Counted from the first letter of the stretch, positions 3,141 to 47,344 are shown. The stretch is 52,147 bases of DNA from Gammaproteobacteria bacterium (GCA_015659815.1 DQME01000184.1:1-52147); one strand, 5' to 3'. Notes: a model not told the origin generated them from the letters alone. Program-made: numbers and translations.

Positions 3141-3248
3141 AATTCAAATCATAATATAATAATTAATCTTTCATGTTACCATACAAATTTATTTAAAATA
3201 TATATCAATTAAATACATTAAATAGATGTATTAATGCTATAATAAATT

Positions 3249-3333
3249 TGTCTTGGTAGAGTGTTCCAACAATAGTTATATAAACTGTTATATTTTTCAT
3301 CTCCTTGATATAAATACATACTCTACCAAGGCA
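3249..3333. repeat. Long-range inverted repeat (11-bp perfect core CTTGGTAGAGT / ACTCTACCAAG, extendable to about 14-16 bp with G-T pairs on the + strand) enclosing about 57 nt
   Basis: Arms at 3249-3262 and 3320-3333 were paired base by base. Located in the 251-nt spacer between the ispH stop and the HTH gene start. Confidence 0.5.
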
Positions 3334-3391
3334 TTAACATTTACTTATCTAAATAACGCTAACCTCTTCAAATTCAATTAGTTGTATGTTG

Positions 3392-25633: not shown

Positions 25634-26635
25634 TTAGTTGCTGACTATTTCGGCAATAACATTTATATTATCGCCCATCTTAATAATGGATGGATAATGT
25701 TTAGCAATAACCATGCCATCTCTAGGAGCAAAATAATCAAACGGCTCCTGATTGGTGTGTTTCGTTGAATGGATTCTAGCGACAAGATCTCCACATTCTA
25801 CCTTGTCACCTAAAGCAACAAATGGCTCGATAATGCCATCGTGCGCAGAACAAATAAAAGAGCGAGCGTCGGGCATATTGAGCTCTATTATTTGTGTCTC
25901 TGGAACAAAAATATCACCAGTCATAACCCCTGTATGTATGAGAAAATTGTCAACTCCTCTCTTAGCTATATTGACAGTTTCAGGGGTAGTGGAACCTCCA
26001 CCACCGAGCTCTGTTGTTACAAATAACTTGCCCATAGACTCTGCTTGTGTATCGTACATGCTCGCGGCATCCATCTCTAGCATTTTCACATAGTATGGAG
26101 CACCAAAAGCTTTGGCAGCAAGCTCACATGCAGCGTCTTGCTTAGTATCGCTCAACACATGTGATGCTGAAAAGGGGACAAGATTTAACGTTTTGCCGCC
26201 AGAATGAATATCCAAAACTACATCCGCCATTGGTAATAGTGTTTTTGAGAAATAATCTGCTATGATTTGTGTAACTGTGCCGTCAGGTCTGCCAGGGAAT
26301 GATCGGTTCATATTTACATTGTCAATTGGAGAAACCCTGTCTCCAGAGAGAAAGGCTGGAAAATTCATTGCCGGGATTATAATAACCCGTCCAGTGATAT
26401 TGTCGATGTTTTTTCTTGAGCACAGATTAAATAGCGCGATTGGCCCTTCATATTCATCCCCATGGTTGCCTCCAGTTAATAGTGCTGTAGGACCATCTCC
26501 ATTTTTAAACTGAGTTACAGGCATCATGATGGAGCCCCAGGCAGAAGTGTTTGATGAATATGGAATCTTAAAGAAGCCGTGCTGTATTCCGTTCACATTA
26601 AAATCAATAGTTGAGGTTGTTGGATTGTTTTTCAT
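25634..26635 (-). CDS. doeB: N-alpha-acetyl-L-2,4-diaminobutyrate deacetylase-like (succinylglutamate desuccinylase/aspartoacylase family)
   Basis: GGNHGDEYEG, NRSFPG and DIHSGG motifs. It sits 6 nt downstream of the M24 hydrolase gene, the doeAB/eutDE arrangement. Confidence 0.65.
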   Translation of the reverse strand: MKNNPTTSTIDFNVNGIQHGFFKIPYSSNTSAWGSIMMPVTQFKNGDGPTALLTGGNHGDEYEGPIALFNLCSRKNIDNITGRVIIIPAMNFPAFLSGDRVSPIDNVNMNRSFPGRPDGTVTQIIADYFSKTLLPMADVVLDIHSGGKTLNLVPFSASHVLSDTKQDAACELAAKAFGAPYYVKMLEMDAASMYDTQAESMGKLFVTTELGGGGSTTPETVNIAKRGVDNFLIHTGVMTGDIFVPETQIIELNMPDARSFICSAHDGIIEPFVALGDKVECGDLVARIHSTKHTNQEPFDYFAPRDGMVIAKHYPSIIKMGDNINVIAEIVSN

Positions 26636-26641
26636 AAATTC

Positions 26642-27820
26642 CTACTTTATTAATAACTTTCTGGGCACATTAGAAAGACATTCTCCTCCTGCTGTTCCAA
26701 CACGCACGCTTTCAGTCATCTCGAATCCCCAGTCTTCAAACCAGATTGCAGGCATAAAATGAAAGGTCATATTTTCTTCTAGCACCGTATCATCCGTTCC
26801 TCTAAGACTCATTGTTCTTTCGCCCCAATCAGGTGGATAACTCAGACCTATAGGATAGCCGCATCGATTACTCTTTTCATAGCCATATTTTTTTAATGTA
26901 GCTGTAAAGTTGTCTGAAATTTGAGCACATGTATTGCCAGGCTTAAACATCTCAATTGCATTTTCAATGCATTCATTAATAACTTTTTCAAGGTCTAAGT
27001 ATTGCTGAGGAGGTGATCCTAAATAAAGTGTTCTTGAGCAGGGGCAGTGATACCTTGCGTAGGCTCCGGCTAACTCTAAAAACATACCCTCATTATTATT
27101 TAATGGTTGGTCATTCCACGTCATGTGGCATGCTGCAGCTTCCTCTCCAACACCAATAAGAGGGACGAATGAAGTATAGTCGCCATAATGACCTTGATTG
27201 CCTTGAGCTCCTGCATGCATTATTTCAGCAACTAAGTCGTTTTTTCTCATCCCAGGTTCTGCAACCTTCATGACACGTTCATAGACACCCTCAATCACCT
27301 TTCCTGCTCTTTTCATATAGGTAATTTCAGTTTCAGACTTAACTGCCCTTTGCCAATTAACGAGCCCTGTTTGATCAATAAAAGTTGAGTCAGGGAGGCA
27401 TCTGTATAAAGATTCAGCAGCTCTTGCTGAAAAATAGTAGTTATCTTTTTCAAGACCAATTCTTTTTTTATTTAGGCTCTTTTCTTTGAATATGCCTGCA
27501 AGGAATTCCATAGGGTGGCGATCAGGACTCATGACATATTCATCTGGGTATGACAATATATTGCTAATGTCCAGATCTGTGGTGAACTCAGCACCTTTAG
27601 CGTCAATTCCTCTACCGTACCAAAAAAGCTCACCATTAGTCGTAATAATTACACATTGATGAACATAAAAAGACCAGCAATCATAGCCTGTCAGCCAGTT
27701 CATGTTGGCAGGGTCATACACAATCATAACTTCAACACCACTCTCTGTCATTGCTTTGCGAGTTTTGTCTTGCCTAGAGGTGAACTCTGATGACTCAAAC
27801 TTTCTTCTAGAATCCAGCAT
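26642..27820 (-). CDS. doeA: Ectoine hydrolase-like M24 (creatinase/prolidase fold) protein
   Basis: 392 aa. Creatinase-type N-domain plus pita-bread domain. Paired with a DoeB-like deacetylase and divergent from an EutA-like gene. Confidence 0.65.
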   Translation of the reverse strand: MLDSRRKFESSEFTSRQDKTRKAMTESGVEVMIVYDPANMNWLTGYDCWSFYVHQCVIITTNGELFWYGRGIDAKGAEFTTDLDISNILSYPDEYVMSPDRHPMEFLAGIFKEKSLNKKRIGLEKDNYYFSARAAESLYRCLPDSTFIDQTGLVNWQRAVKSETEITYMKRAGKVIEGVYERVMKVAEPGMRKNDLVAEIMHAGAQGNQGHYGDYTSFVPLIGVGEEAAACHMTWNDQPLNNNEGMFLELAGAYARYHCPCSRTLYLGSPPQQYLDLEKVINECIENAIEMFKPGNTCAQISDNFTATLKKYGYEKSNRCGYPIGLSYPPDWGERTMSLRGTDDTVLEENMTFHFMPAIWFEDWGFEMTESVRVGTAGGECLSNVPRKLLIK

Positions 27821-27919
27821 ATATTATTATGTTCTAAAAAAACTCGTATATTACACAGAAATCTATACAATGTCACCGATAGTGGCTTTATTAATACAGT
27901 CAAAATAATTAAACCCTAA

Positions 27920-28648
27920 ATGATTAATTCAAATTACATAATTAACAAATTACGCGTGGCTAGTGGGATTGATGCTTATGTCCCAAAAGTAGGTATGATT
28001 ATTCTTGATACCGACCTAACCTGCGAAAGAGACTTTGCCCGAATGAAATCTGAGCACAATTCAAATTTTGACTTGTACTATAATCGTGTTACTTTTGAAA
28101 ACCCTATGACTGTAGAAAGCTTAACAGCCATATTGCCACGACTGCCTGAAGCTGCAGGCCAAATATTACCTGGCATTACTTTGGACGCTTTGGTATTTAA
28201 TTGCACCTCTTCCTCTGCTCTGTTAGGCGACAGTGCAGTGGTTTCTGCACTCTCATCAATATCGAATAATACATTCACCACTGCTTCCGCAGTAGTGTCA
28301 GAAATGAAAAAAGCAAACGTAAAAAATATCAGTATACTGTGCCCATATCCTAAGAATGTTAGCATTGGCATGGCTGATTATTTTTACTCATGTGGGTTAA
28401 ACGTTACGTCACTCACGTACCTAGATATTGAGGACGATAGAGATGTAGCTAATATTGGTGCAAAAAAAATTATTGATTCAGCAATAAAAGCGATAAGTCC
28501 CGATTCAGATGCATTATTTATTTCCTGTACGGCCCTTAGATCAGCTGAATTGGTAAAAGACCTTTGCGACTTAACTAAGAAAAAAATCTTCACGAGTAAC
28601 TACTCTACCTTCAAACACCTAGAGTCGGTTATAGGTAATAATTTGTAA
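27920..28648 (+). CDS. Asp/Glu/hydantoin racemase superfamily protein (arylmalonate decarboxylase / maleate isomerase / EutA-like)
   Basis: Two catalytic-cysteine contexts, FNCTSSS and FISCTALRS. 242 aa. Confidence 0.6.
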   Translation: MINSNYIINKLRVASGIDAYVPKVGMIILDTDLTCERDFARMKSEHNSNFDLYYNRVTFENPMTVESLTAILPRLPEAAGQILPGITLDALVFNCTSSSALLGDSAVVSALSSISNNTFTTASAVVSEMKKANVKNISILCPYPKNVSIGMADYFYSCGLNVTSLTYLDIEDDRDVANIGAKKIIDSAIKAISPDSDALFISCTALRSAELVKDLCDLTKKKIFTSNYSTFKHLESVIGNNL

Positions 28649-31646: not shown

Positions 31647-31675
31647 CTAATTAATTGTTCACGGAGGCTTGTCTA

Positions 31676-33214
31676 ATGTCGGCAAAAAGAGGTAAAAGAA
31701 ATGGTGGCAGGGCAGCAAAAATTGCTCACAGAAAGAAGACATCTCAAATAGAAGCGCCTAAATTTTTAACTCGCAATATTCCTTGCTATGATTTACTAAA
31801 TGAAGATGAGTTGGTTCGTATCGAAGACCATGCTGAATGGATACTTAAAGAGAAAGGTATTGAGTTTTGGGATGATGATGAAACTCTAGAGCTGTTCAAG
31901 GGGGCTGGTGCAACAGTTAAAAAAAATACAGTATTTTTTGATAAAGGGCATGCAAGAGACTTATGTAAAACAGCCCCGAGAGAGTTCGAAATGCATGCAA
32001 GAAACTCTAAAAGATCAACTATTTTTGGTGGTAATAGGCTTGTTCTGGGTCCCGCATATGGTTCCCCTTTTGTGTACGACTTAAAGAGAGGAAGAAGACA
32101 GGGAACAATGGAAGATTTTAATAATTTAGTTAAACTTACCCATATGACTCCCTGGCTTCATCACACCAGCGGCACTGTTTGTGAGCCGGTAGACATACCA
32201 GTCAATAAGAGGCACTTAGATATGGTTTACTCCCATATCAAATATTCTGATAAACCTTTTATGGGTTCTGTCACTGCCACTGAGCGTGCTGAGGACTCAA
32301 TAAAAATGGCCCGTATTGTTTTTGGTGAAGAGTTCATGAATTCAAACTGTGTAATTCAGGGAAACATAAACGTTAATTCGCCCCTAGTTTATGACAACAC
32401 CATGACTGGAGCATTGAAGACATACGCTAGAGCAAACCAAGGTGTTGTAATCACTCCGTTCATTCTTGGTGGGGCAATGTCTCCGGTGACCATGCCTGCA
32501 GCAATTGCCCAAGCACATGCTGAAACTATGGTAGGTGTCGCTTTAACACAACTAATTCGTCCAGGTTCTAGTGCTGTGTATGGTAATTTTTTAACAACGA
32601 TGGACCTCAAGTCTGGTGCTCCGACATTTGGTACACCAGAATCTTCACTAGCCACGCTCGCGGTTGGACAGATTGCAAGAAGGCTGGGGCTCCCTTTTAG
32701 AGCTGGGGGCCATTACACAGCCTCAAAAGTTACTGATGCGCAATCAATGCAGGAGTCTGCTGACTCAATGTATCCAGCTTTTCTGGCGGGAGCTAACTTT
32801 ATACATCAGGCAGCAGGATGGTTAGAGGGAGGACTGGTGGTTGGCTATGAGAAATTTATTATTGATTCTGAGCGCCTAGGCATCCTGCACAGAATAGGGG
32901 AAGGCATGACTATCGATGAAAACACTCTTGCTTATAGTGCTTATCGTGAAAACTCACCTGGAGAGAATTTTTTAGGAACACAGCATACTATTGAAAACTT
33001 TGAAAATGCTAACTTTCGTTGTGAAATGGCTGACAACAATTCTTTTGAGCAGTGGGCTGAGGACGGCTCTAAAAACTCTGAGCAGCGAGCATATGAGCGC
33101 TGGAATCAGATGCTAGAGGAGTACGTTGAGCCACCTTTAGATGAGTCAATAGATGAAGAGTTGATTGACTTTATAGCCAAAAAGAAAGAGGGTATGGCAG
33201 ATGAATGGTATTGA
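31676..33214 (+). CDS. MttB-superfamily (trimethylamine methyltransferase family) protein, non-pyrrolysine type; probable quaternary-amine (glycine betaine-type) methyltransferase
   Basis: I prefer the ATG at 31676 (GGAGG 8 nt upstream) over the ORF-track TTG at 31655. The basic N-terminus KRGKRNGGRAAKIAHRK and the about 510-aa length are typical of marine MttB homologues. No in-frame TAG. Confidence 0.85.
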   Translation: MSAKRGKRNGGRAAKIAHRKKTSQIEAPKFLTRNIPCYDLLNEDELVRIEDHAEWILKEKGIEFWDDDETLELFKGAGATVKKNTVFFDKGHARDLCKTAPREFEMHARNSKRSTIFGGNRLVLGPAYGSPFVYDLKRGRRQGTMEDFNNLVKLTHMTPWLHHTSGTVCEPVDIPVNKRHLDMVYSHIKYSDKPFMGSVTATERAEDSIKMARIVFGEEFMNSNCVIQGNINVNSPLVYDNTMTGALKTYARANQGVVITPFILGGAMSPVTMPAAIAQAHAETMVGVALTQLIRPGSSAVYGNFLTTMDLKSGAPTFGTPESSLATLAVGQIARRLGLPFRAGGHYTASKVTDAQSMQESADSMYPAFLAGANFIHQAAGWLEGGLVVGYEKFIIDSERLGILHRIGEGMTIDENTLAYSAYRENSPGENFLGTQHTIENFENANFRCEMADNNSFEQWAEDGSKNSEQRAYERWNQMLEEYVEPPLDESIDEELIDFIAKKKEGMADEWY

Positions 33215-33281
33215 GCTTGTATTTGATTCTTTTTTGAATTAACATTTTAGTTTTGGTTGTTTATATATTTAGGAATCCATT

Positions 33282-35696
33282 ATGAAAGATAATGCAAGAG
33301 TTGTTGTTATCGGGGGTGGTGTAGTTGGCTGTTCAATTCTATTTCACCTCGCTAAGATGGGTTGGAAAGATGTCGTTTTACTTGAAAGGAATGAACTAAC
33401 TTCTGGCTCAAGCTGGCATGCTGCCGGTTCATTTCATACAGTGAGTTCTGACCCTAATGTTTCTAAACTTCAAGATTACACAATCAGCCTTTATAAAGAA
33501 ATTGAAGAAACCTCTGGCCATTCAATCAGTATGCACAAAACAGGAGGCTATTACTTAGCCTCAAACCAGAATTGGCATGACTATCTAAAGCGAGAACGCT
33601 CTAATGCAAGATCATTAGGCTTGAATCAAGAGTTTGTGTCTCTAGATGAGGTTGTCGAAAAGCATCCATTAATCAATCCTGATCATTACGTTGCCGCTCT
33701 TTGGGATCCATCTGATGGCGATATTGATCCTTCAGGAGTTGTTTACGCATATGCAAAATCGGCTCGTGTACATGGGGCTGAGTTTTATACTCACACTCCA
33801 GTCATTGAAACCAACCAGCGACCTGACGGTTCTTGGGATGTTGTTACTGAGAAAGGCAATATTCATGCAGAGTACATAGTTAATGCTGGCGGTCTTTGGG
33901 CGCGTGAAGTTGGTCGTATGTCTGGAATTCATTTACCTGTTGTCCCAATGGAGCACCATTATTTAATTACTGAAGAAATTGAACAAATTGCCAATTTAAC
34001 AGATGGACACCGATTACCAAGTTGTATTGATTTTGAGGCGAATATTTATACTCGTCAAGAAAATACTGGGATGCTGTTGGGGACTTATGAACCCCGATCT
34101 ACACCATGGTCTTTGGACGGCACACCACAAACTTTTGGGCATGATCTACTTGAGCCAGATTTGGATCGTATTGCGGATCGATTGGAGCTAGCTTTTGAGC
34201 GTATTCCTGCACTAGGAACAGCCGGTATTAAAAATATTATTAATGGGCCATTTGTTTTCTCTCCTGATGGAAATCCAATGGTTGGACCAGTTCCAGGCAT
34301 GAAAAACTACTGGACAGCTGTTGGTGTTATGGCAGGTTTTTGTCAAGCGGGAGGTGTTGGTAAAACGTTGGCTGAATGGATGATTGAAGGAGAACCCTCT
34401 GTGGATGTGTGGGCAATGGATATTGCACGTTTTGGTGATTTTGCAACCCCTGAGTGGGGGGTTATTAAGTCTTCTGAAAATTATGAACGCCGCTTTGTAA
34501 TGACTTTTCCTAATGAGACGCTGCCTAAAGGAAGGCTTCAGAAAACAACGTCAATATACGATCGCCTAACTCAAAAAGGCGCTGTGTGGCAAGATACTTT
34601 TGGTCTTGAAAATGCACTTTGGTTTGCTAACTCTCCAGAGGATGCTTATGAAGAACCAACATTCCACAGATCAAGATCTCATGACTATGTAGCTAAGGAA
34701 GTAGAAGCTGTAAGAGAGTCTGTTGGAGCAATTGAAGTGGCGAACTTTGCTAACCATAAGTTTACGGGTAAGGGAGCTAAAGCCTTTTTAGAGATGGTTC
34801 TTGCGGGCCGCATTCCAAACCAAGGAAGGGTTAATTTATCGCCTATGCTCCTAGAGAGTGGCAAGCTCAATGGAGACTTGACAGTAGCATGTATTGATGA
34901 AGAAACCTATTATTTATTCGGATCCAGCGCCGTTCAAAACATGCATCTTCGATGGTTTGACAAGCACCTTGAGGGAGTTCAAGATGTTGTCTATAAAAAC
35001 ATGACAGATGATTTTCATGGTATTGCAATATCGGGTCCAAAATCTAGGGAATTGTTATCAAAGCTTACCCGAGAAGACGTCAGTTCTGAAGTTTTTAAAT
35101 TCCGAGATATAAGAGATACTTTTATAGGCGGGGTCCCAGCACTATGCGTAAGGATTTCATTTACAGGTGAGCTTGGCTATGAAATTTATGTTGCCCCTCA
35201 GTACCAATTAAAACTCTTTGAGGCGATAGAAGAGGCTGGAGCAGGCCTTGGTCTTAAATGGTTTGGTGGAAGGGCATTAATGTCAATGAGGCTGGAGAAA
35301 AGTTGGGGCGCATGGGCAATGGACTTTAGACCTGACTTTACATTAATGGAATCAGGACTTGATTTTTTTGTGGATTGGAATAAAGAGTTTATCGGTAAAA
35401 AAGCATCCTTAGTAGAGAAAAAGAAGGGTCCAAATAAAAAGCTTTCCGTCATACAAATAGATACCGAAACTGACGTTAGTGGTGATGAGGCTGTAATGCA
35501 TAATGGGGAATGTATTTCCTATATTACTTCTGGAGGGTACGGGCATTCGGTTAAAAAATCTCTTGCGATGACCTATCTTCCAGTTGATTTAATTAACTCC
35601 AATACAAAGCTTGAAGTAGAAATACTGGGTGAGTTTCATAAGGCTAGTGTGGTTGTTGAGCCTCTATATGATCCTAGTGGTTCGAAAATGCGATAA
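33282..35696 (+). CDS. Dimethylglycine/sarcosine dehydrogenase family flavoprotein (FAD domain plus GcvT-like folate domain)
   Basis: VVVIGGGVVGCS dinucleotide fold, GSSWHAAG (covalent-FAD His context) and a C-terminal aminomethyltransferase-like domain. 804 aa. Confidence 0.85.
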   Translation: MKDNARVVVIGGGVVGCSILFHLAKMGWKDVVLLERNELTSGSSWHAAGSFHTVSSDPNVSKLQDYTISLYKEIEETSGHSISMHKTGGYYLASNQNWHDYLKRERSNARSLGLNQEFVSLDEVVEKHPLINPDHYVAALWDPSDGDIDPSGVVYAYAKSARVHGAEFYTHTPVIETNQRPDGSWDVVTEKGNIHAEYIVNAGGLWAREVGRMSGIHLPVVPMEHHYLITEEIEQIANLTDGHRLPSCIDFEANIYTRQENTGMLLGTYEPRSTPWSLDGTPQTFGHDLLEPDLDRIADRLELAFERIPALGTAGIKNIINGPFVFSPDGNPMVGPVPGMKNYWTAVGVMAGFCQAGGVGKTLAEWMIEGEPSVDVWAMDIARFGDFATPEWGVIKSSENYERRFVMTFPNETLPKGRLQKTTSIYDRLTQKGAVWQDTFGLENALWFANSPEDAYEEPTFHRSRSHDYVAKEVEAVRESVGAIEVANFANHKFTGKGAKAFLEMVLAGRIPNQGRVNLSPMLLESGKLNGDLTVACIDEETYYLFGSSAVQNMHLRWFDKHLEGVQDVVYKNMTDDFHGIAISGPKSRELLSKLTREDVSSEVFKFRDIRDTFIGGVPALCVRISFTGELGYEIYVAPQYQLKLFEAIEEAGAGLGLKWFGGRALMSMRLEKSWGAWAMDFRPDFTLMESGLDFFVDWNKEFIGKKASLVEKKKGPNKKLSVIQIDTETDVSGDEAVMHNGECISYITSGGYGHSVKKSLAMTYLPVDLINSNTKLEVEILGEFHKASVVVEPLYDPSGSKMR

Positions 35697-35744
35697 AATT
35701 ATTTTATAAGTAAAGGTAAAGTTTATTTGATTTGAGGGGCGTTC

Positions 35745-37061
35745 ATGAATTTTAGTAACAATAAAAGACACCAACCAAAAATTAAGGTTGGCTCTAGTGA
35801 GGTAGAGGATATTTATAGCCTCAATAAGCATACGCTGGGTCCTGGAAACTTAGCTGAATCAGAATGGAAAGAGGCTGGTTTACCTAGCCCAAATATGACC
35901 AATATACATGAGTACCGATTAAAAAGAGTTCGCGACAAACTCAAGAAATTTGATTGCTCTGGAATTCTGCTCTATGACCCCCTCAACATACGCTATGCAA
36001 CGGATAGTACAAACATGTCGATATGGACATCACACAACGCTACGCGCTACGCATTAGTGATGACAGAAGGACCTGTAATAGTTTTCGAGTTTGACGGGCA
36101 TGAATTTCTATCAAATCATAACTCATTAATAACAGAGGTAAGACCAGCCAAAACCTATTTGTATTTTGCGGCTGGTGAATATAGTAGGAATCGAGCTAAA
36201 ATATGGGGCGATGAGGTTGCAGAAATTGTAGCTAGATACGGCTCTGGAAATAAACGACTGGCGCTAGATCATTGCGCTCCTGAAGGTATTCATGAGTTAC
36301 ATAGCCATGGTCTGGAGCTATTCAATGGTGAAGAGGTGATGGAACTAGCAAGGTTGATTAAGTCAGAAGATGAAATCAACGCTATGAGGCGTTCTATCTA
36401 TGCGTGTGAAAAATCTATAGATACTATGCGTACCTATTTCAAGCCAGGTATTTCGGAGCAAGAGTTATGGGGTCACTTTCAGATGGAGTCAGTCTCTAGA
36501 GGTGCAGAATGGATTGAGACGCGCCTTCTTGCTGCGGGACCTAGAGCTAATCCTTGGTACCAAGAGTGCTCATCACGCCCAATACAGAATGGGGAGCTAA
36601 TGAGTTTTGATACTGATCTGGTTGGTGCATATGGTTACTGTACTGATATGTCTCGCTGCTGGCTGTGTGGCGATGAGGCACCAAACCCAAAACAAAAAGA
36701 TATCTATACAAAGGCCTATGAACAAGTTAAACATAATATTGAGTTATTGCGTCCAGGAATCACTTTTAAGGAGCTTTCATTTTCTTCTAAAGAGTATCCC
36801 AAGGATGAGTTTCGACATTATTCGGTTCAGTACCACGGGGTAGGTCTATGTGACGAATACCCCTGCATACCTTTTACTTGGGAGTGGGACAATAACAGCT
36901 ACGATGGCACAGTCAAGCCCGGTATGGTTTTATGTGTCGAAAGCTATGTCGGTAGGCTTAACGGGGGGCCAGGTGTAAAATTAGAGGAACAAGTTTTAAT
37001 AACTGAAAATGGATATGAATTGTTGACTAGCTATCCCTTTGAATCTAATTTATTGCTATAG
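35745..37061 (+). CDS. dddP: DddP-type dimethylsulfoniopropionate (DMSP) lyase (M24-fold)
   Basis: Long blocks matching characterised DddP as I recall it: DPLNIRYATDSTNM, EWIETRLLAAGPRANPWYQEC, SFDTDLVGAYGYCTDMSRCW, YHGVGLCDEYP and KLEEQVLITENGYELLTSYPF. 438 aa. Confidence 0.8.
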   Translation: MNFSNNKRHQPKIKVGSSEVEDIYSLNKHTLGPGNLAESEWKEAGLPSPNMTNIHEYRLKRVRDKLKKFDCSGILLYDPLNIRYATDSTNMSIWTSHNATRYALVMTEGPVIVFEFDGHEFLSNHNSLITEVRPAKTYLYFAAGEYSRNRAKIWGDEVAEIVARYGSGNKRLALDHCAPEGIHELHSHGLELFNGEEVMELARLIKSEDEINAMRRSIYACEKSIDTMRTYFKPGISEQELWGHFQMESVSRGAEWIETRLLAAGPRANPWYQECSSRPIQNGELMSFDTDLVGAYGYCTDMSRCWLCGDEAPNPKQKDIYTKAYEQVKHNIELLRPGITFKELSFSSKEYPKDEFRHYSVQYHGVGLCDEYPCIPFTWEWDNNSYDGTVKPGMVLCVESYVGRLNGGPGVKLEEQVLITENGYELLTSYPFESNLLL

Positions 37062-38573: not shown

Positions 38574-38738
38574 AGTAGTTTGTTTGGTCTTTATTCGAAT
38601 AATTATATGTGGTTGCTTAATCAATATTTTTATAAATATAATTAAAGTCAACCTTTGATTATTATTATTAATATTTAATTATTGAATAATAATAACAAAA
38701 GTGTACAATTTATTTTATTTATTTCTGATACAAACAAT

Positions 38739-40187
38739 ATGGCTAAATTATCTAAAAATTTCATTGCTGGTGAGTGGGTTTCAGGGGACAGCACAATATC
38801 GAACATTAACCCTTCAGACACGAATGATGTGATTGGAGAGTTTGCTCAAGCAAGTACTTCACAATTGGAAGATTCGCTTAGCTGTTCTCACATAGCTCAA
38901 AAAGTATGGGCTGCAACTGGGCTGGAGCAGCGTCAAGCTGTATTGATGAGTATTGGGGAAGAGATGATGGCACGTAGCTCTGAGTTAGGAGAATTGTTGT
39001 CTAGAGAGGAGGGCAAACCTTTGGCAGAAGGCAAGGGCGAGGTCTATAGAGCTGGGCAGTTTTTTACTTACTATGCGGCTGAAGTATTGCGACAGAGTGG
39101 AGATACAGCAGACTCGGTAAGGCCTGGCATTGAGATTGATGTTCGTCGAGAGGCAATGGGGACTGTAGCTATTATATCTCCATGGAACTTTCCTACCGCA
39201 ACAGCAAGTTGGAAGATTGCCCCCGCCCTAGCATTTGGGAATGCTGTTATATGGAAGCCAGCAAACCTTACACCTGCAAGTGCTGTTGCGCTGACTGAAA
39301 TTATCTCCAAACAAGACATGCCTAAGGGCCTATTTAACTTAGTCATGGGTTCTGGTTCATCTATAGGCCAGGCCTTAGTAGAGAACCCTATGGTTGATGC
39401 TATAAGCTTTACTGGTTCATATGATGTTGGACGAATAGTTGCTGCTGCTGCTGCAAAAAATTTGACTAAATTTCAATTAGAGTTAGGATCTAAGAACCCT
39501 TTGGTTATTATGGATGATGCTGATATAGATGTTGCTGTTGCTGCAGCGACAGGTGGTGCATTTGGTAGCACTGGACAAAAATGTACGGCCTCCTCAAGGC
39601 TAATTGTTCATACCGACATTCATGATGAATTTATTGAACGTATGAAGCTCTCAACATCGGCACTTAAGGTAGGCCATGCACTTGTTGAGGGAACACAAAT
39701 CGGTCCCGCTGTTAGTGAAAAACAACTTAAATCTAATCTTGACTATATGACCTTGGGCAAAAAAGAAGGTTGTGAGGTTGTTTGTGGAGGGCGCAGTCTT
39801 GAGCTTGCGACTCCTGGACATTATATGCAACCAGCTTTACTGGTTGGTGGTAGTAACTCTATGAGACTTAACCGTGAAGAGTTGTTTGCACCGATTGCAT
39901 GCGTAATTAAGGTTGCAGACTACGATGAAGCACTTATAGTCGCAAATGACACGGAGTTTGGCCTGGTTTCTGGAATTATTACTAAATCCCTATCGAGGGC
40001 AACTCACTTTCGCAGGAACTCTGAAAGCGGCTGTGTCATGGTAAACCTTCCTACCGCTGGTACTGACTACCATGTTCCTTTTGGGGGAAGAAAAAATTCA
40101 AGCTTCGGTCCAAGAGAACAGGGTCAATATGCAAAAGAGCTATACACGCAAGTAAAAACGTCTTATATCTCTTCCGGTAATCCATAA
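38739..40187 (+). CDS. NAD(P)+-dependent aldehyde dehydrogenase, alpha-ketoglutarate-semialdehyde dehydrogenase-like
   Basis: I prefer the ATG at 38739 over the TTG at 38682. Motifs PWNFP, ELGSKN and GQKCTASSR. The N-terminal FIAGEWV...NPSDTNDVIGEF resembles the KGSADH (YcbD/GucD) branch. Confidence 0.85.
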   Translation: MAKLSKNFIAGEWVSGDSTISNINPSDTNDVIGEFAQASTSQLEDSLSCSHIAQKVWAATGLEQRQAVLMSIGEEMMARSSELGELLSREEGKPLAEGKGEVYRAGQFFTYYAAEVLRQSGDTADSVRPGIEIDVRREAMGTVAIISPWNFPTATASWKIAPALAFGNAVIWKPANLTPASAVALTEIISKQDMPKGLFNLVMGSGSSIGQALVENPMVDAISFTGSYDVGRIVAAAAAKNLTKFQLELGSKNPLVIMDDADIDVAVAAATGGAFGSTGQKCTASSRLIVHTDIHDEFIERMKLSTSALKVGHALVEGTQIGPAVSEKQLKSNLDYMTLGKKEGCEVVCGGRSLELATPGHYMQPALLVGGSNSMRLNREELFAPIACVIKVADYDEALIVANDTEFGLVSGIITKSLSRATHFRRNSESGCVMVNLPTAGTDYHVPFGGRKNSSFGPREQGQYAKELYTQVKTSYISSGNP

Positions 40188-41173
40188 TGTCAGAACAGAA
40201 ATTATTTATAGATGGGCTCCAATATAATTCTTGGAGTGAGGAAATATTTAGCCAAATTCACGAGGGCGGACTTAGTGCGGTTCACGTAACAATTAGCTAC
40301 CATGAAGATTTCCAAGAAACAGTACAAAATATTATTGATTGGAATAGATACTTTATCAAGTACTCTGACCTAATATTTCTAGGTCGCACTGCTGAAGATG
40401 TCAGGAAGGCGCAAAGGGAGAGTAGAACTGCTATTTTCTTTGGATTTCAAAACTGCTCCCCTATTGAGGATAATATTGGTTTGGTCGAAATTTTACACAC
40501 CCTAGGTGCCAGATTCATGCAACTCACATACAATAACCAAAGCTTACTGGCTACGGGCTGTTACGAGAAAAAAGATTCTGGCATAACTAGAATGGGTAAA
40601 CAGGTTATAAAAGAAATGAACAGGGTGGGACTGGTGGTTGATATGAGTCACTCAGCTGAGCGTTCAACACTTGAAGCAATTGAAGTATCCGAAAGGCCAA
40701 TAGCTATTACGCATGCTAACCCATCTTTATGGCATCCTGCACTTAGAAATAAGTCGAGCGAGGTTTTAAGAGCGCTAGGGTCTAGCGGCGGAATGGTCGG
40801 CTTTTCAATTTACCCCCACCATCTAAAAGATGGATCAAAATGTACAATAGAAAGTTTTTGTGGGATGATAGCTGAGACTGCTGACCTTGTTGGCATTGAA
40901 AGCATAGGAATAGGGAGTGATTTATGCCAAAATCAGCCCGACAGTGTGGTTCAATGGATGCGCAACGGCACCTGGTCAAATGATCTAGATTTTGGCGAGG
41001 GCTCTGCTTCACTTGCCGGCTTCCCTGAACAGCCGTCCTGGTTTAAGGATAATAGAGATTTTTCTAATATTGAGTCAGGACTTAAGAGTGTTGGAATGGA
41101 TAGCAAAAATATAGAAGCCGTAATGGGTACTAACTGGCTGAGGTTTTTTGAATCTTCTTTTGGGTCTGCCTAG
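40187..41173 (+). CDS. Peptidase M19 (renal dipeptidase) fold protein with a substituted metal site
   Basis: Colinear with M19 over the full length (VVDMSH, IAITHA, IGIGSD). However, IDGHND is replaced by IDGLQY and GVEGGH by GFQNCS. The start shares one base with the ALDH stop (TAATG). Confidence 0.8.
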   Translation: MSEQKLFIDGLQYNSWSEEIFSQIHEGGLSAVHVTISYHEDFQETVQNIIDWNRYFIKYSDLIFLGRTAEDVRKAQRESRTAIFFGFQNCSPIEDNIGLVEILHTLGARFMQLTYNNQSLLATGCYEKKDSGITRMGKQVIKEMNRVGLVVDMSHSAERSTLEAIEVSERPIAITHANPSLWHPALRNKSSEVLRALGSSGGMVGFSIYPHHLKDGSKCTIESFCGMIAETADLVGIESIGIGSDLCQNQPDSVVQWMRNGTWSNDLDFGEGSASLAGFPEQPSWFKDNRDFSNIESGLKSVGMDSKNIEAVMGTNWLRFFESSFGSA

Positions 41174-41183
41174 CAATAACTCA

Positions 41184-42884
41184 ATGACAAAAGATGTGAA
41201 GTCAAACGAATTGATTTTGCGTGACCCCGGCAAGGTCATGCGTCTTGAGAGGATGGGTTCTTCCTTCCAAACTCGGTTGAGTTTTATGCGTACACTCATT
41301 CGTAGAATGTCTACAGATAAGTGGCGATTTGAGAGACTAAGAAGCGATATTGACAGTGAGGGTTATGGGGTCAGTGTTTATGCTGCCCATACGCCTGAAA
41401 GAACTTACTCTTTAGTTGCCTTTACACAAAGCATACCCAACGATATGAGGACTGACAGGGTTATCGCTGAGGTGTGGGACGCTACATTCAGTTTGTATGA
41501 CGGGGTGCCATCTCTTGAGGATATAGAGTATCTTTCTAAGAATACACCGAAACAAGAAGCTGGCCGATTCAGACCAAGTGAGCTGGTCTTAGCGAGAGCC
41601 AACAAAAGTTTAAGACTGTTTGAGCATATAGCATCTTCACTCTCTAATGGGGAACAACCGGACATTGATTTGCTTGCGTCGGTTGGCTATTTAATGAGGA
41701 CTACAGCAGTTTATGGTAGCGGAAAGTTTGGTTGCGCTGATCGTGCTAAATTGCATGACCGTGAAGAATGTAAGGTGTCATTTCATATTGAATTGCTGGC
41801 AGTGTATTTGATACGATGGTTCACTATAGACTTAGTTGAAACTATTGCCCAAAAGAGAGGTGGAAAAAAGGCTGTTAAGCTTGAACACAATATAAGTAAA
41901 TTCATCGGTGTTGGTAACTCAACAGGACTAGGTATGGCCCCTTTTTTATTGAAACATCCAGTTCTTATTCATAACTGGGTATCAGCAAAAGAGTCCTCTT
42001 TGGGTAGAGTTAGAAGTATTAAGAATCCCACAGATTACAGTACTGAGGTATTTTTGCAAAGCCTGAAACAGGCATCCCAACATATCAGAGAATGGAACGT
42101 TGAAGATGAAGAGCAGACGCTAAGAATTGAACGCCTTAGGGCTGAAGTTGATAAGCTTGAATATTGGTGTGTCGCCAATAATATATTAAAAAAAATGTCT
42201 CCATGGAACAGTATTTATAAATTCGTTGAGGATAACTTTTCATACGAATGTCAAGAACTGACGGTCTCTTTACTGTTAGAGCCGCACGGTGAGTTAATTG
42301 ATGAGCTTGGTGACACTATGTTGGCAACTGATGACCCAGTATTCGATTCAAACATGCAACTTAAAGAGTTAACAAATATACTTAATGAGCATTATTCTTG
42401 GGCTACTAAGATTGATTTTTCTTCTGCCGAATCACAACACCACTTTTGGTACTATTCAGAAGATAAGTTAGAACCCAGATTTGGATCTATTGATACGGAC
42501 GATGGAGTTGAACAAGAGATGCCCTTGGCAATAGCTAGAGAGATAAGCGATCTACACAACAAACTGAAAACCTTCTCAAATACAATGTGTACTGGTGAGT
42601 TTGCAATGCGATATCCACAGTTCCGACACATAATACGTAGGGCTCAAAATACAGCCGTTAGGCCTTATGCAGAAGTGCAAGACAACTTGTTGAATAAAAG
42701 TATGCGTCCTCTTGACTTGTTACGCTTTAAGCTCGCTTTTTTTGGGGCATCAAAGTTTGACCCTAAGTCTGATTTATGGACAAGGATTTCAATGTATCAG
42801 GGTGCACCATTGCCAAAACAGCTAAATGACATAGACCATGATAACTGGGCATTTCCAATTAAACCGATTAAGGAAATTCAATGA
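41184..42884 (+). CDS. Hypothetical protein, 566 aa, no family recognised
   Basis: Long uninterrupted ORF. The ATG at 41184 lies 10 nt after the upstream stop, and I prefer it to the TTG at 41148, which would overlap the M19 gene. Ordinary soluble-protein composition, with no TM segments and no nucleotide-binding or metal motifs that I can identify. Confidence 0.7.
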   Translation: MTKDVKSNELILRDPGKVMRLERMGSSFQTRLSFMRTLIRRMSTDKWRFERLRSDIDSEGYGVSVYAAHTPERTYSLVAFTQSIPNDMRTDRVIAEVWDATFSLYDGVPSLEDIEYLSKNTPKQEAGRFRPSELVLARANKSLRLFEHIASSLSNGEQPDIDLLASVGYLMRTTAVYGSGKFGCADRAKLHDREECKVSFHIELLAVYLIRWFTIDLVETIAQKRGGKKAVKLEHNISKFIGVGNSTGLGMAPFLLKHPVLIHNWVSAKESSLGRVRSIKNPTDYSTEVFLQSLKQASQHIREWNVEDEEQTLRIERLRAEVDKLEYWCVANNILKKMSPWNSIYKFVEDNFSYECQELTVSLLLEPHGELIDELGDTMLATDDPVFDSNMQLKELTNILNEHYSWATKIDFSSAESQHHFWYYSEDKLEPRFGSIDTDDGVEQEMPLAIAREISDLHNKLKTFSNTMCTGEFAMRYPQFRHIIRRAQNTAVRPYAEVQDNLLNKSMRPLDLLRFKLAFFGASKFDPKSDLWTRISMYQGAPLPKQLNDIDHDNWAFPIKPIKEIQ

Positions 42885-43597
42885 ATAATGAGTTTATTAG
42901 GATTTCTCTTAACGAAATATTGTTCTACTTTACAAGGGCCGGATTTGGAGTTAATGCGCCAATAGGGTTATCAGAAGACTTTGCACGTAGTAATGTCTGG
43001 CTAGCGGAAAATGGCTTTGACCCATCCTCCTGTAGCTATTTTGCATTAGACTGTTTAGACAATAGAAAGAGTTCCCTTATAACTAAGTTTTCAGATAGCA
43101 ATACTATTGTTTGTGGTAATAAAAAATATTTGTCTGCTTTCCAAGCATCTGTAGTTGCTGCTGACTGGATCACAACTGATAGTAAAGATGAACTTAAAAT
43201 AGTTAATGTAGATTCTCCCTTTATAGTTCTGGCACAGTTAGGAGCAACCCTAGCCGAAGACCTACAAGTAAAATGGTCAGACGATAAGGGGGATAAATAC
43301 CTAGTCAACCTCAATAAAAATGAAAGATGGGAAATTGTTAGTAGTTCTGTTAACCTAATTGAACATAGCAAAGGCGCAAACATTTCAATTAAAAGTCCAG
43401 CATGCAAAGATATAGACAATAATGCAGCAGTTAAAAAATTTGACACAAAGCATGGCAGGCAAAATATATTGCAAACAGGTGTCGAAGTTAAGGACAGATG
43501 GGGTTTAGTGTATGAATACTTTTCTCGATGTCTAGTAAAATCAAACACTAGGTCGCGAGAATCTGGTGCAGGTGCAGGCCTTGTGGACAATGATTAA
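42881..43597 (+). CDS. Hypothetical protein, 238 aa, no family recognised
   Basis: ATGA overlap with the preceding gene. Ends in a Gly/Ala-rich acidic tail, SRESGAGAGLVDND. The long antisense ORF over it has junk-like composition. Confidence 0.65.
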   Translation: MNNEFIRISLNEILFYFTRAGFGVNAPIGLSEDFARSNVWLAENGFDPSSCSYFALDCLDNRKSSLITKFSDSNTIVCGNKKYLSAFQASVVAADWITTDSKDELKIVNVDSPFIVLAQLGATLAEDLQVKWSDDKGDKYLVNLNKNERWEIVSSSVNLIEHSKGANISIKSPACKDIDNNAAVKKFDTKHGRQNILQTGVEVKDRWGLVYEYFSRCLVKSNTRSRESGAGAGLVDND

Positions 43598-43611
43598 TAT
43601 TAGGTGAACAT

Positions 43612-44613
43612 ATGAACACAACTACTTTAAATAAAACAGAAATCGAACAAATAACCATTCAGGCCCTTACAAACTCTGGGGCTAGTTTGATTGCAGCATC
43701 CTCAATGGCAAGAGGGGTAGTAGCTGCTGAAATGGATGGAATATCCAGTCATGGATTGATATATGTTCCAATTTATTGTGAGCACTTAGTGTGCGGCAAG
43801 GTTAGTCCCAATGCTGAACCATCCGTCAATATTACTGCTCCCAGCGCTATAACTGTCGACGCTGATTGTGGCTTTGCACATCCTGCCATCGATGCTGGGT
43901 TTAACCTGATGATTGAGAGTGCAAAGAAGAACGGGTGTGCAGCTATGTCAATAAAAAACTCTTACAATTGTGGTGTTCTGGGATATCACACTGAGCGCAT
44001 AGCCAGAACTGGGTTGACCGGTTTAGGATACACCAATGCACCTGCATCTATTATGCCTGTCGGAGGTGACACACCTGTAATTGGCACTAACCCTTTTTCT
44101 CTGGCATTGCCCAATGGTAAGGGGGGAGTAGCTTTCGTTATTGATCAATCTGCCAGTGTTGTAGCCAAGAGTGAAATAAAAATGCATGCCCTTGCTGGTA
44201 AGCCAATTCCTGAGGGATGGGCATATGACTCTGATGGCAATATAACAACAGACGCTGAAAAAGCTATGCTTGGTTCTATGGCTCCAGTTGGCGGCTATAA
44301 AGGTTTTGGGACGGGACTTATGGTTGAATCATTCGCTGCAGTAATGTCTGGAGCGTCATTGGGGAAAGACGCTAGCCCGTTTGCCGGAACCTCTGGTGGT
44401 CCACCAAAAACTGGTCAATTTTTCTTCGCTGTCTCGCCTGAACTATTCTCACACGGTCTGTTCGCAGAAAAAGTAGAGTCTCTAACTGAATCAATAGAAT
44501 CTCAGGATGGTGCCCGTTTACCCGGCACTGGAAGGTTTGTTAATAGAGATACTAATGAAAGGAGTGGAGTTGAGGTTAGCACAGAGCTACTAGAAAAAAT
44601 ACGGTCTATTTAA
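43612..44613 (+). CDS. Ldh2-family (malate/L-lactate dehydrogenase type 2) NAD(P)H oxidoreductase
   Basis: 333 aa. Blocks GISSHGL, GTNPFSLA, APVGGYKGFGTGLMVE and C-terminal RLPG are typical of the ComC/DpkA/ureidoglycolate dehydrogenase family. AGGTG lies 5 nt upstream of the ATG. Confidence 0.85.
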   Translation: MNTTTLNKTEIEQITIQALTNSGASLIAASSMARGVVAAEMDGISSHGLIYVPIYCEHLVCGKVSPNAEPSVNITAPSAITVDADCGFAHPAIDAGFNLMIESAKKNGCAAMSIKNSYNCGVLGYHTERIARTGLTGLGYTNAPASIMPVGGDTPVIGTNPFSLALPNGKGGVAFVIDQSASVVAKSEIKMHALAGKPIPEGWAYDSDGNITTDAEKAMLGSMAPVGGYKGFGTGLMVESFAAVMSGASLGKDASPFAGTSGGPPKTGQFFFAVSPELFSHGLFAEKVESLTESIESQDGARLPGTGRFVNRDTNERSGVEVSTELLEKIRSI

Positions 44614-46093: not shown

Positions 46094-47344
46094 CTATTTA
46101 ATTTCGTAGTCATCTAAATGCTTACCTTTTTTTATTCTTGCTGCTGTTCCATTTGACTCTTTTTTAAACTCATGCGAGCTGACGCTCTGTGTAAGTAAAT
46201 CAGCCCTAAGGTCGATGGTTGAAAGGCCTGCCTGTCCACAACTACGCATACCATCAAATCTCGCCAAAGCTTTTATTTTTTTATTAGCTAGGTGTGGCTG
46301 CAGTTTGTTCATGTCACTAGGGACACACTCATAGTCCAAAGTCAAGTATCCCGACCCCTCTGCAAATTGTAGTAATTCAGCCCCCTTACTGGTTCTCGCT
46401 ATAACCGTGTTAGTTCCTAAGTCATTATTAATCATTTCCTTGGTTGGAGTACATTCAGGCCATGTATCGCCGGTAGAAATATCTGCCCCCTCACCAGTTC
46501 CGTCTGGACAAACTCTGCAGCGCCACGGCATATGCCATTGGGAAGAGTCTGTGCCCCAAAAATCTAAGTAACTTTTTTCAATGCGACTACCGTTATTAAG
46601 TTTTATTGAAGTAGGGCCAGGGCACCCGTTCCCTCTATAGCTAACACTGTCAACTTCTTCTTCTCTCACACCTTCTGACTGGAAGAAATTACTCATAGCA
46701 AATGGTGGAAAAAAGCCACCACAGAAGGGGGAAAGCATTAACGGTATATACTTATCTACCCTGGGGTCTTTTTTCGCTAACAATCGCATAGCAGAAATAT
46801 CGCAAGGCTTAGCCACAAGGGCCACCCTTATACCTTCATCCAAAACCTTTTTAATTTTGTCTAGTGGGGAGGTGGATGCATAAATAGAAGCACAGTTTTC
46901 GTTGACTTCAGACAATGTGTAACTAATAGTTGAATGGCCAAAATATGGCTTTAAACCGCTTGGCCCAACATGCAACACAGCATCGACCATTTTAGACTCT
47001 ATTAGAAACCCTGCAAGTGCAGTTAGCACACCCCCAGTGGCCGACTTATGCCGAACAGAATCGTTACTAGCGTGTGCTGCACAAATCCGTTCTATGGGCC
47101 CCCAAACTGGGTCTATTTGTACCCCTTCAGATAGGTATTTATTTGGCATTCCTGACTGTACAACTCCAGGACAAAAACTACTCAAATACCTGAGCTCTTT
47201 CTCGGTTAAGCACTTATTCTCTTTAGGCCTTAGACCTCCAACGCTTAGCTCTATATTAACCTTTTCAGAAAAAACTGAAGCGCACAACCCGCAGCCAATA
47301 CAGAGACCCTCATTTATTATTTGTTGAATACTACTTGCTGCCAT
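46094..47344 (-). CDS. FrhB-like (coenzyme F420 hydrogenase/dehydrogenase beta-subunit family) Fe-S flavoprotein, function unknown
   Basis: N-terminal ferredoxin-like CIGCGLC plus an FCPG Cys. A central flavin-binding-type block SATGGVLTAL. A C-terminal Cys cluster CRVCPDG. 416 aa. Confidence 0.7.
   Translation of the reverse strand: MAASSIQQIINEGLCIGCGLCASVFSEKVNIELSVGGLRPKENKCLTEKELRYLSSFCPGVVQSGMPNKYLSEGVQIDPVWGPIERICAAHASNDSVRHKSATGGVLTALAGFLIESKMVDAVLHVGPSGLKPYFGHSTISYTLSEVNENCASIYASTSPLDKIKKVLDEGIRVALVAKPCDISAMRLLAKKDPRVDKYIPLMLSPFCGGFFPPFAMSNFFQSEGVREEEVDSVSYRGNGCPGPTSIKLNNGSRIEKSYLDFWGTDSSQWHMPWRCRVCPDGTGEGADISTGDTWPECTPTKEMINNDLGTNTVIARTSKGAELLQFAEGSGYLTLDYECVPSDMNKLQPHLANKKIKALARFDGMRSCGQAGLSTIDLRADLLTQSVSSHEFKKESNGTAARIKKGKHLDDYEIK

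Follow-up and report, generated by a model that had tools for sequence, protein, structure and literature searches.

A five-gene block in an uncultured gammaproteobacterium that very probably represents the homarine (hom) catabolism operon

The stretch of DNA analysed here (the window; 52,147 nucleotides, with positions counted from its first nucleotide) derives from a Gammaproteobacteria bacterium (GCA_015659815.1, DQME01000184.1:1-52147) and contains five plus-strand open reading frames (ORFs) packed at positions 38739-44613 with junctions of 0-14 nt, as checked in the sequence. They encode, in this order, an aldehyde dehydrogenase (ALDH), an M19-like protein, two proteins of 566 and 238 aa, and an Ldh2-family oxidoreductase. 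The block is very probably an orthologue of the operon for catabolism of homarine (N-methylpicolinate), comprising homD, homC, homB and homA followed by a gene for an Ldh2-family reductase, and the first four products are referred to below as HomD, HomC, HomB and HomA. The features of the window are summarized in Table 1.

Table 1. Position and properties of the five-gene block and of neighbouring features in the window.
Feature	Position	Strand	Properties
Divergent AT-rich spacer, cupin gene/ALDH gene	38574-38738	none	165 nt; cupin gene starts at 38573 (-)
homD-type ALDH	38739-40187	+	482 aa; ATG start agrees with 482-aa homologues
homC-type atypical M19 protein	40187-41173	+	328 aa
homB-type	41184-42884	+	566 aa; 1,701 nt
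homA-type	42881-43597	+	238 aa; 717 nt
Ldh2-family oxidoreductase	43612-44613	+	333 aa
doeB-like (AstE/AspA family) and doeA-like (M24) genes	25634-27820
MttB-family methyltransferase	31655-33214
DMGDH-like DAO-GCV_T fusion	33282-35696
DddP-like M24 protein	35745-37061		461 bits on the DddP (dimethylsulfoniopropionate lyase) model; cut-off 600 bits
FrhB/FdhB-like Fe-S protein	46094-47344	-	416 aa

The ALDH and M19 genes meet in TAATG (40185-89), in which the A at 40187 is common to stop and start; the TAG of the M19 gene (41171-73) is followed by a 10-nt gap and the ATG of homB at 41184; homB and homA share an ATGA overlap (42881-84); and the TAA of homA (43595-97) is separated from the ATG of the Ldh2 gene at 43612 by a 14-nt gap with a Shine-Dalgarno-like AGGTG (43602-06). 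The stop of the Ldh2 gene (44611-13) and that of the convergent minus-strand sdaA (44615-17) lie one base apart. A sequence-only reading had described five tightly spaced genes forming a single unit between a cupin-gene spacer and sdaA, and all of its junctions, gaps and flanks were confirmed in the sequence. The GC content of the block is that of its surroundings. The 165-nt spacer contains a sigma-70-like site (38682-38709, plus strand; a consensus match only) and AT-rich, uninterpretable inverted repeats, and gave no riboswitch match in Rfam at E<=1. No plus-strand terminator-like site was found by promoter/terminator scan at or after any gene junction within 40187-44613, and the single plus-strand match within the unit (39587-39601) is internal to the ALDH gene; the scan gave the same counts as in shuffled sequence and was used only for this statement on junction terminators. 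The block is transcription-unit-like and is one operon, and its arrangement is not due to chance: dozens of unrelated genomes share this gene order.

The 566-aa HomB has no Pfam, NCBIfam or PDB match by sequence, and a profile search of PDB sequences was also empty. Its closest homologue (P0001) is likewise of 566 aa (100% coverage); at least 7,997 homologues were found, and none of the 120 listed carries a functional name. The HomB superfamily comprises 1,415 representatives at 50% identity, and species-representative genomes contain relatives in no fewer than 599 stretches, the hosts including Alpha- and Gammaproteobacteria and also metagenome-assembled genomes labelled Deltaproteobacteria, Myxococcota (Archangium, Haliangium), Poribacteria and Acidimicrobiales. 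The AlphaFold2 model of HomB, although of very high confidence (pLDDT 93.4, pTM 0.93), found no match in the PDB by Foldseek (best E 0.24, TM ~0.09).

The 238-aa HomA scored 20.9 bits against DUF3726 (PF12525) in Pfam, just under the 22.1-bit cut-off; its full-length homologues at 33-36% identity pass this cut-off, as do the proteins that occupy this position in loci of Phaeobacter italicus, Roseovarius, two Ruegeria species and Vibrio. Judged by sequence, HomA appears to be a divergent member of DUF3726, a family on which a literature search found nothing. There are 98 detectable homologues, of which the more distant ones carry PF12525/DUF3726, and the invariant columns form an N-terminal S-x-NE-x2-F-x-FTRA and a C-terminal SRxSGAGAGLVDxD tail. 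For the AlphaFold2 model of HomA (pLDDT 87.7), the Foldseek matches in the PDB at E<=0.001 were Ldh2-family structures only (E 1.7e-4 to 1e-3; TM ~0.56, query). HomA is about 100 residues shorter than Ldh2 proteins and has no Pfam match to Ldh_2 (PF02615); the model suggests a truncated Ldh2-like fold, and HomA may work like, or descend from, Ldh2. The two central proteins, which the sequence-only reading could assign to no family, gave nothing usable in sequence and profile searches of PDB, Pfam and NCBIfam beyond the sub-threshold DUF3726 match, and the description of a pair outside any characterised family holds. HomB-HomA fusions of 760-816 aa make up about ten representative clusters, and from adjacency and fusions the two proteins evidently work together; a heterodimer has been predicted (PMC13236597).

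Two further observations concern the wider HomB superfamily. Homologues of 820-940 aa (P0299-P0368) form a separate class of about 30% identity with a C-terminal extension of 280-370 aa, which opens with the HomA-like helix motif ELRKLLTRAL..G..LG.AED and is devoid of the GAGAG tail; in the five proteins scanned there was no above-threshold Pfam match, and P0305 gave a sub-threshold match to DUF3726. On pSymB of Sinorhizobium (S.) meliloti 2011 (NC_020560.1, ~390-406 kb; locus L087, 6719-15674), a distant paralogue module encodes a HomB-like protein (26% identity, 517 bits against the HomB hidden Markov model, HMM), a 251-aa ORF without Pfam match in the position of HomA, then an M19-like gene, together with the SBP_bac_8 protein, two permeases and ATPase of an ABC transporter and with a class III aminotransferase. 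The sequences suggest that the trio of HomB, HomA-like and M19-like proteins is reused for another substrate in S. meliloti.

For the remaining three genes, the assignments to Aldedh, Peptidase_M19 and Ldh_2 made in the sequence-only reading were confirmed by Pfam. The ALDH (Aldedh, E 2e-151) contains in its translation the motifs ELGSKN and GQKCTASSR, and its best NCBIfam matches, below the cut-offs, are models of 2,5-dioxovalerate/alpha-ketoglutarate semialdehyde (KGSA) dehydrogenase, which bears out the motifs and the KGSA-dehydrogenase-like character that had been noted for it. It is 85-87% identical to the ALDH in the same position of Thioglobus-type loci.

The M19-like protein matches Peptidase_M19 (E 2.4e-70), the match beginning only at profile position 31, and its best PDB match is 2i5g, a 325-residue 'amidohydrolase' (E 8e-62), which we take to be PA5396 of Pseudomonas aeruginosa. 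At the canonical M19 site (DPEP1, Sco3058), two zinc ions are bound by an HxD motif, by two His residues and by a Glu that bridges the metals, and there is a catalytic Asp. Despite the Pfam domain match, HomC does not have this ligand set: DGL stands in place of the DGHxD motif (the expected site being judged by its N-terminal position), and GFQN replaces GIEG in the alignment to GliJ, so that the bridging Glu is gone; the positions of the later His, His and Asp are retained (DMSH, THA, GSDL). The protein is probably a member of the M19 fold but not a canonical dipeptidase, and its designation as an 'atypical M19' protein was apt. HomC and the 2i5g protein constitute an M19 subfamily that has lost HxD and the bridging Glu, for which dipeptidase activity is improbable.

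The fifth protein is a full-length member of Ldh_2 (E 1e-91) with the SHG motif kept. Its best PDB match is 1wtj, the delta1-piperideine-2-carboxylate reductase DpkA (E 7.5e-43); it lies under all NCBIfam equivalog cut-offs, the best match being the L-sulfolactate dehydrogenase model (177 bits vs a 500-bit cut-off). Besides reducing cyclic imines (delta1-piperideine-2-carboxylate and delta1-pyrroline-2-carboxylate), DpkA acts as an N-methyl-L-amino-acid dehydrogenase.

Conservation of the gene order was examined in 83 non-redundant loci, with HMMs for the two unknown proteins and phmmer for the other genes. The DUF3726-type (HomA) gene directly follows the HomB gene in 78 of these loci, an M19-like gene lies up to 3 kb upstream of HomB in 62, and an ALDH gene is found upstream in 31. 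An Ldh2 gene is present within 9 kb in 29 loci and directly after the DUF3726 gene in 24, the latter including loci from Alpha- and Gammaproteobacteria and Poribacteria. BCCT transporters are found nearby in 21 loci (in 13, between the M19 and HomB genes) and LysR regulators in 27. The sequence-only reading had asked for synteny outside this genome and for accompanying transporters and regulators, and the gene order is indeed conserved, in several phyla. In the closest metagenome relatives, synteny is identical from the ALDH gene through the M24 gene; the Thioglobus-type loci have no adjacent LysR gene, one lying about 4 kb past the Ldh2 gene in three of them (L003-L005). The locus of Ruegeria denitrificans (L090) reads LysR (minus strand), ALDH, M19, HomB-like, DUF3726, Ldh_2, BCCT; that on the megaplasmid of Ruegeria sp. 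TM1040 (RefSeq) reads sarcosine-oxidase-like subunits, a helix-turn-helix regulator, LysR, ALDH, membrane dipeptidase, BCCT, hypothetical, DUF3726, Ldh family, and the Phaeobacter italicus and Vibrio loci show the same reading from LysR on. In a neighbour-joining tree, the HomB of the window is nested in a clade bounded by Vibrio and containing Roseobacters. The S. meliloti paralogue, like the long fusions, lies outside this clade (paralogues at 25-30% identity).

The operon to which the block corresponds was described as homABCD(E)R, for homarine catabolism, by Ferrer-Gonzalez et al. (Nat Microbiol 2026; PMC13236597). In Cobetia sp. OBi1 (ACFLL8_11490-11520) its order is homE-homA-homB-homT (BCCT)-homC (peptidase)-homD (ALDH)-homR, and in Ruegeria (R.) pomeroyi DSS-3 it extends from SPO3188 (homA) to SPO3192 (homR), with SPO3190 as peptidase and SPO3191 as ALDH; HomC was predicted to be a peptidase (PMC13236597). 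Growth on homarine was lost in mutants of homB, homC, homD and homR, the ALDH gene homD/SPO3191 being required, and Vibrio and Ruegeria isolates with the operon grow on homarine (PMC13236597). Independent papers annotate SPO3186 as the BCCT transporter dmdT and SPO3188 as a hypothetical protein, and the literature annotation of SPO3186-SPO3192 gives the same seven-gene order as the R. denitrificans locus. The TM1040, Phaeobacter and Vibrio loci, read in reverse, show the exact Cobetia order, and the core of ALDH, M19, 566-aa, 238-aa and Ldh2 genes is the same in the window.

The published operon has a homA of ~700 nt and a homB of ~1,700 nt, which are adjacent in 97.7% of genomes (PMC13236597); in the window they measure 717 and 1,701 nt and overlap by ATGA. 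Operons were searched for with homC and homD within 10 kb of homAB (PMC13236597), and in the window the M19 and ALDH genes lie immediately upstream of homBA on the same strand. The HMMs for homA and homB were specific and those for homC and homD promiscuous (PMC13236597), as expected for two family-less proteins beside an M19 protein and an ALDH. In the window, as in the published operon, four core genes keep one relative order and a fifth gene, possibly homE in the window, is variable; both occur in marine bacteria of the Alpha- and Gammaproteobacteria, streamlined oligotrophs among them, beside genes for one-carbon and amino-acid catabolism; in streamlined oligotrophs, hom operons are found without accessory genes (PMC13236597). 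The proposal of an undescribed module in the sequence-only reading was right in kind but has been superseded by this publication: gene content, order and sizes match the published operon, and the central ORFs correspond to HomB and HomA, which is essentially the case, set by that reading against itself, of two ORFs that complete a known pathway. Of the substrates it had suggested, the general class of a small nitrogenous solute holds, and the product N-methylglutamate is an N-alkyl amino acid; homarine itself was not on its list. A DpkA-type role of the Ldh2 enzyme, which it had raised, is a reasonable proposal.

From its position, the Ldh2 gene is an accessory gene of the module and possibly homE. 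It holds the same position in the Ruegeria loci, matching SPO3187, and the gene order of TM1040 is the mirror image of E-A-B-T-C-D-R in Cobetia provided that E is the Ldh2 gene. It is missing in Pseudothioglobus, and this variability fits an auxiliary gene; homE is absent in about one third of genomes (PMC13236597). In the locus of Vibrio sp. THAF190c (pTHAF190c_a; L088), a hom-type operon without Ldh2, a RidA/YjgF-family gene (3033-3431) lies between the LysR and ALDH genes. This RidA-like gene may represent an alternative handling of an imine intermediate; as a general accessory, RidA-like genes gave only two weak matches in the first 86 loci.

For the chemistry of the pathway, genetics and metabolomics with R. 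pomeroyi and Cobetia showed that the pyridinium ring opens without loss of the N-methyl group, and that N-methylglutamate and then glutamate are formed (PMC13236597). Labelled homarine yielded N-methylglutamate, glutamate and the features C7H9NO5, C6H9NO4 and C6H9NO3; N-methylglutamate is demethylated by N-methylglutamate dehydrogenase (NMGDH; mgdABCD), and a Vibrio isolate without mgd grows on homarine (PMC13236597). By formula, C7H9NO5 would fit N-formyl-N-methyl-didehydroglutamate, C6H9NO4 would fit N-methyl-didehydroglutamate, i.e. 2-(methylimino)glutarate, and C6H9NO3 would fit the corresponding semialdehyde or else N-methylpyroglutamate; addition of 2H and O2 to homarine yields C7H9NO4, the product expected from reduction of the pyridinium followed by oxygen cleavage of C5=C6. 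HomA and HomB would act as one enzyme in the first, ring-opening step, the KGSA-dehydrogenase-like ALDH would oxidise the C5 aldehyde, and the M19-like HomC would serve as deformylase/amidase on the ring-opened intermediate, the N-formyl group leaving as formate. The DpkA-like Ldh2 protein would then catalyse the NAD(P)H-dependent reduction of the imine/enamine 2-(methylimino)glutarate to N-methyl-L-glutamate. Demethylation to glutamate must fall to a gene outside the block. There is no mgdABCD in the window; a candidate is the gene for the dimethylglycine-dehydrogenase (DMGDH)-like fusion at 33282-35696, whose product could be an N-methylglutamate demethylase where no mgdABCD is nearby. Where Ldh2 is absent, one may speculate that the imine is instead hydrolysed to 2-oxoglutarate and methylamine, an idea with which the RidA-like Vibrio gene and the growth of the mgd-less Vibrio would fit.

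An analogous route is that for trigonelline (tgnA-F, Acinetobacter baylyi ADP1), an isomeric N-methylpyridinium carboxylate, in which the ring is also opened with the N-methyl group retained. The trigonelline work of Perchat et al. 2018 is said to describe an N-formyl intermediate followed by aldehyde dehydrogenase and amidase steps, and the roles proposed above for HomD and HomC would parallel these. Trigonelline breakdown ends in succinate semialdehyde and methylamine, whereas the end product of the hom pathway is N-methylglutamate; furthermore, HomA is Ldh2-like in its predicted fold and HomB is without PDB match. A TgnAB-like flavin system has been suggested for ring opening by HomA and HomB (PMC13236597); no flavin reductase or oxygenase domain was detected in either protein by Pfam or fold comparison, and a TgnAB-like mechanism finds no support in the predicted folds and domains, although it may still apply. 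It is conceivable, though we consider it doubtful, that HomA, HomB and perhaps HomC constitute a new kind of pyridinium ring-opening enzyme rather than a flavin-dependent TgnAB-like pair. HomA would then be an Ldh2-derived subunit that binds the 2-carboxylated N-heterocycle, possibly with NAD(P)H, and delivers or stabilises a dihydropyridine, with HomB breaking the enamine at C5=C6; the trio of HomB, HomA-like and M19-like proteins would have diversified to other substrates (the S. meliloti pSymB module, the long HomB fusions), and the Ldh2 and RidA-like genes would decide between N-methylglutamate and 2-oxoglutarate plus methylamine. The DpkA-type Ldh2 enzymes (PDB 1wtj/2cwh) offer a comparison here, as the fifth gene encodes a full-length Ldh_2 protein and HomA appears to be a truncated form of the same fold, and as the substrates of DpkA, 2-carboxylated cyclic imines, are chemically near reduced homarine and 2-(methylimino)glutarate; they differ in that the fifth protein is below the equivalog cut-offs and in that HomA is shorter.

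Several points weigh against the assignment to the hom operon or against parts of it. The link is drawn from architecture, gene sizes, annotations and phylogenetic bracketing rather than from direct sequence comparison. R. pomeroyi was not among the matches listed for a profile of 14 Roseobacter HomB proteins, in which several Ruegeria species were listed, and none of the ten NCBI clusters looked up contains a R. pomeroyi member. The HomB of the window is 45-46% identical to Roseobacter HomB and 37% to Vibrio HomB, so that substrate specificity is extrapolated. The 52-kb window contains no LysR or AraC homologue (homR), the divergent neighbour being a cupin gene, and neither the BCCT gene homT nor a mgdABCD cluster; its host belongs to an uncultured lineage with Thioglobus/Pseudothioglobus-like neighbours that is unnamed in the main text of PMC13236597. 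As to the fifth gene, R. pomeroyi was stated to have no homE orthologue (PMC13236597), though SPO3187 is of Ldh2 type, and the text of PMC13236597 assigns HomE to no family; either homE is something other than an Ldh2 gene or the test by reciprocal best hits failed. The neighbour of homD in the Vibrio locus is a RidA-like gene and not Ldh2. As to HomA, comparison of its profile with that of Ldh2 (hhalign) gave a probability of 1.5%, which is not significant, and NGFDP, without His, stands at the site of the Ldh2 SHG motif (alignment extended by eye), and because of these two results HomA is not called a member of Ldh2. Finally, the step-by-step assignment of enzymes is derived from formulas and family chemistry.

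Among other explanations, a paralogous module in which the same enzyme set acts by a hom-like mechanism on a different N-methylated heteroaromatic compound or cyclic betaine (e.g. trigonelline, N-methylnicotinamide-type compounds, picolinate or pipecolate betaine) is improbable. The superfamily of HomB is deep, with its 1,415 representatives, its contexts differ (e.g. on S. meliloti pSymB, with a 26% identical HomB, ABC transporter and aminotransferase), and about ten loci have no M19 or ALDH gene within 9 kb of HomB-HomA; the absence of homR, homT and mgd from the window and the identity of 37-46% to the lineages with hom-type architecture are also compatible with another substrate. However, the window has the full set of ALDH, M19, HomB and HomA (plus Ldh2) in hom order, its HomB falls inside the Vibrio-Roseobacter clade with the paralogues outside, and a lack of accessory genes is a known property of the operons of streamlined oligotrophs (PMC13236597). 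We regard it as very unlikely that the M19-like gene and its partners serve the demethylation of glycine betaine and dimethylglycine together with the MttB-like, DMGDH-like, sdaA and gcvP genes, by analogy with PA5396-PA5397 of the dgc operon: there is no dgcA or dgcB in the window or in related loci, the dgc operon combines dgcAB with etf genes and lacks an ALDH, the partners seen here (ALDH, HomB and HomA) belong to the hom operon and not to dgc, and the Roseobacter module has its own LysR regulator and BCCT transporter. The analogy draws on 2i5g, the solved structure closest to the M19-like protein, on an M19 subfamily common to both that is without HxD and bridging Glu, and on an M19-like gene beside a hypothetical gene in a betaine-catabolic operon; according to the literature, PA5396 lies within the dgc operon and its mutants behave as dgc mutants, and in V. 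natriegens the genes ahead of dgcAB are those for a dipeptidase and a hypothetical protein. The neighbourhood in the window is likewise one of betaine, serine and glycine catabolism, and in one related locus (L015) the MttB-DMGDH-DddP-like genes lie directly upstream of M19-HomB-HomA, the same being seen with larger gaps in another (L028).

Very little probability also attaches to a fifth gene that is separate from a four-gene hom operon and encodes, as a fortuitous neighbour, the (R)-sulfolactate dehydrogenase ComC. In a separate paper SPO3187, an Ldh2-family protein, was re-annotated 'comC' sulfolactate dehydrogenase; SPO3187 was left out of the hom operon (PMC13236597), and the top NCBIfam model of the Ldh2 protein of the window is L-sulfolactate dehydrogenase. 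That score, however, is far below the model's cut-off, the Ldh2 gene directly follows HomA in 24 of the 83 loci, among them loci of Alpha- and Gammaproteobacteria and Poribacteria, with only 14 nt and a Shine-Dalgarno-like sequence between the two in the window, and the window showed no genes for sulfolactate metabolism (suyAB, slcD, xsc). Other candidates were rejected, i.e. an ectoine/hydroxyectoine pathway, a hydroxyproline/proline-betaine pathway (prompted by the KGSA-dehydrogenase-like ALDH) and a corrinoid partner system for the divergent MttB-like gene of Thioglobus-type loci; each fails to explain the HomB-HomA-M19 core with its own BCCT and LysR genes.

Homarine is an abundant phytoplankton metabolite, whose degradation feeds carbon and nitrogen to marine bacteria via glutamate. 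With the block assigned to the hom operon, it represents a further copy of a known pathway, and the finding adds little beyond a distribution to an uncultured lineage with neighbouring genes like those of Thioglobus and Pseudothioglobus heterotrophs. New are the HomB model without PDB match, the truncated Ldh2-like fold predicted for HomA, the HomB-HomA fusions, the loss of two metal-ligand motifs in HomC and the S. meliloti paralogue module, and the interest lies in the ring-opening enzymology of HomA and HomB, the accessory Ldh2 reductase and the wider HomB superfamily. The unmatched fold predicted for HomB and a HomA that, by its model, is closer to a shortened Ldh2 dehydrogenase than to a flavin protein lead to testable hypotheses for ring opening and for the accessory Ldh2 reductase.

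The surroundings, described in the sequence-only reading as devoted to osmolyte breakdown, do contain osmolyte and one-carbon genes (doeA/doeB-, MttB-, DMGDH- and DddP-like genes, sdaA, gcvP). The doeB/doeA-like genes adjoin a gene for an arylmalonate-decarboxylase/racemase-like protein (25634-28648), in what looks like a cluster for ectoine/hydroxyectoine degradation. The M24 gene at 35745-37061 is followed by a gene for a Zn-dependent alcohol dehydrogenase, whose best models, all sub-cut-off, include quinone oxidoreductase and acryloyl-CoA reductase; the two genes may be a dimethylsulfoniopropionate/acrylate-type pair, or the first may encode a different M24 hydrolase. Other Gammaproteobacteria also have the MttB-, DMGDH- and DddP-like genes (31655-37061): L015 and L028 carry all three upstream of M19-HomB-HomA-Ldh2, and L034 has only the DddP-like gene there. 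In L003-L005 and L001, the divergent neighbour is a second MttB-family methyltransferase gene (41-44% identical to that of the window) with two short-chain dehydrogenase/reductase genes, and a GntR regulator gene is also present in L003-L005, not in L001; the window has the cupin gene in that position. Past the block come sdaA (minus strand), the gene for the FrhB-like Fe-S protein, gcvP and a gene whose product has an ACT domain. The FrhB/FdhB-like gene is kept near the hom block in Thioglobus-type lineages (L003-L005, L091, L092), and in L003-L005 it is convergent right after the Ldh2 gene, beside a gene of the MR_MLE enolase superfamily.

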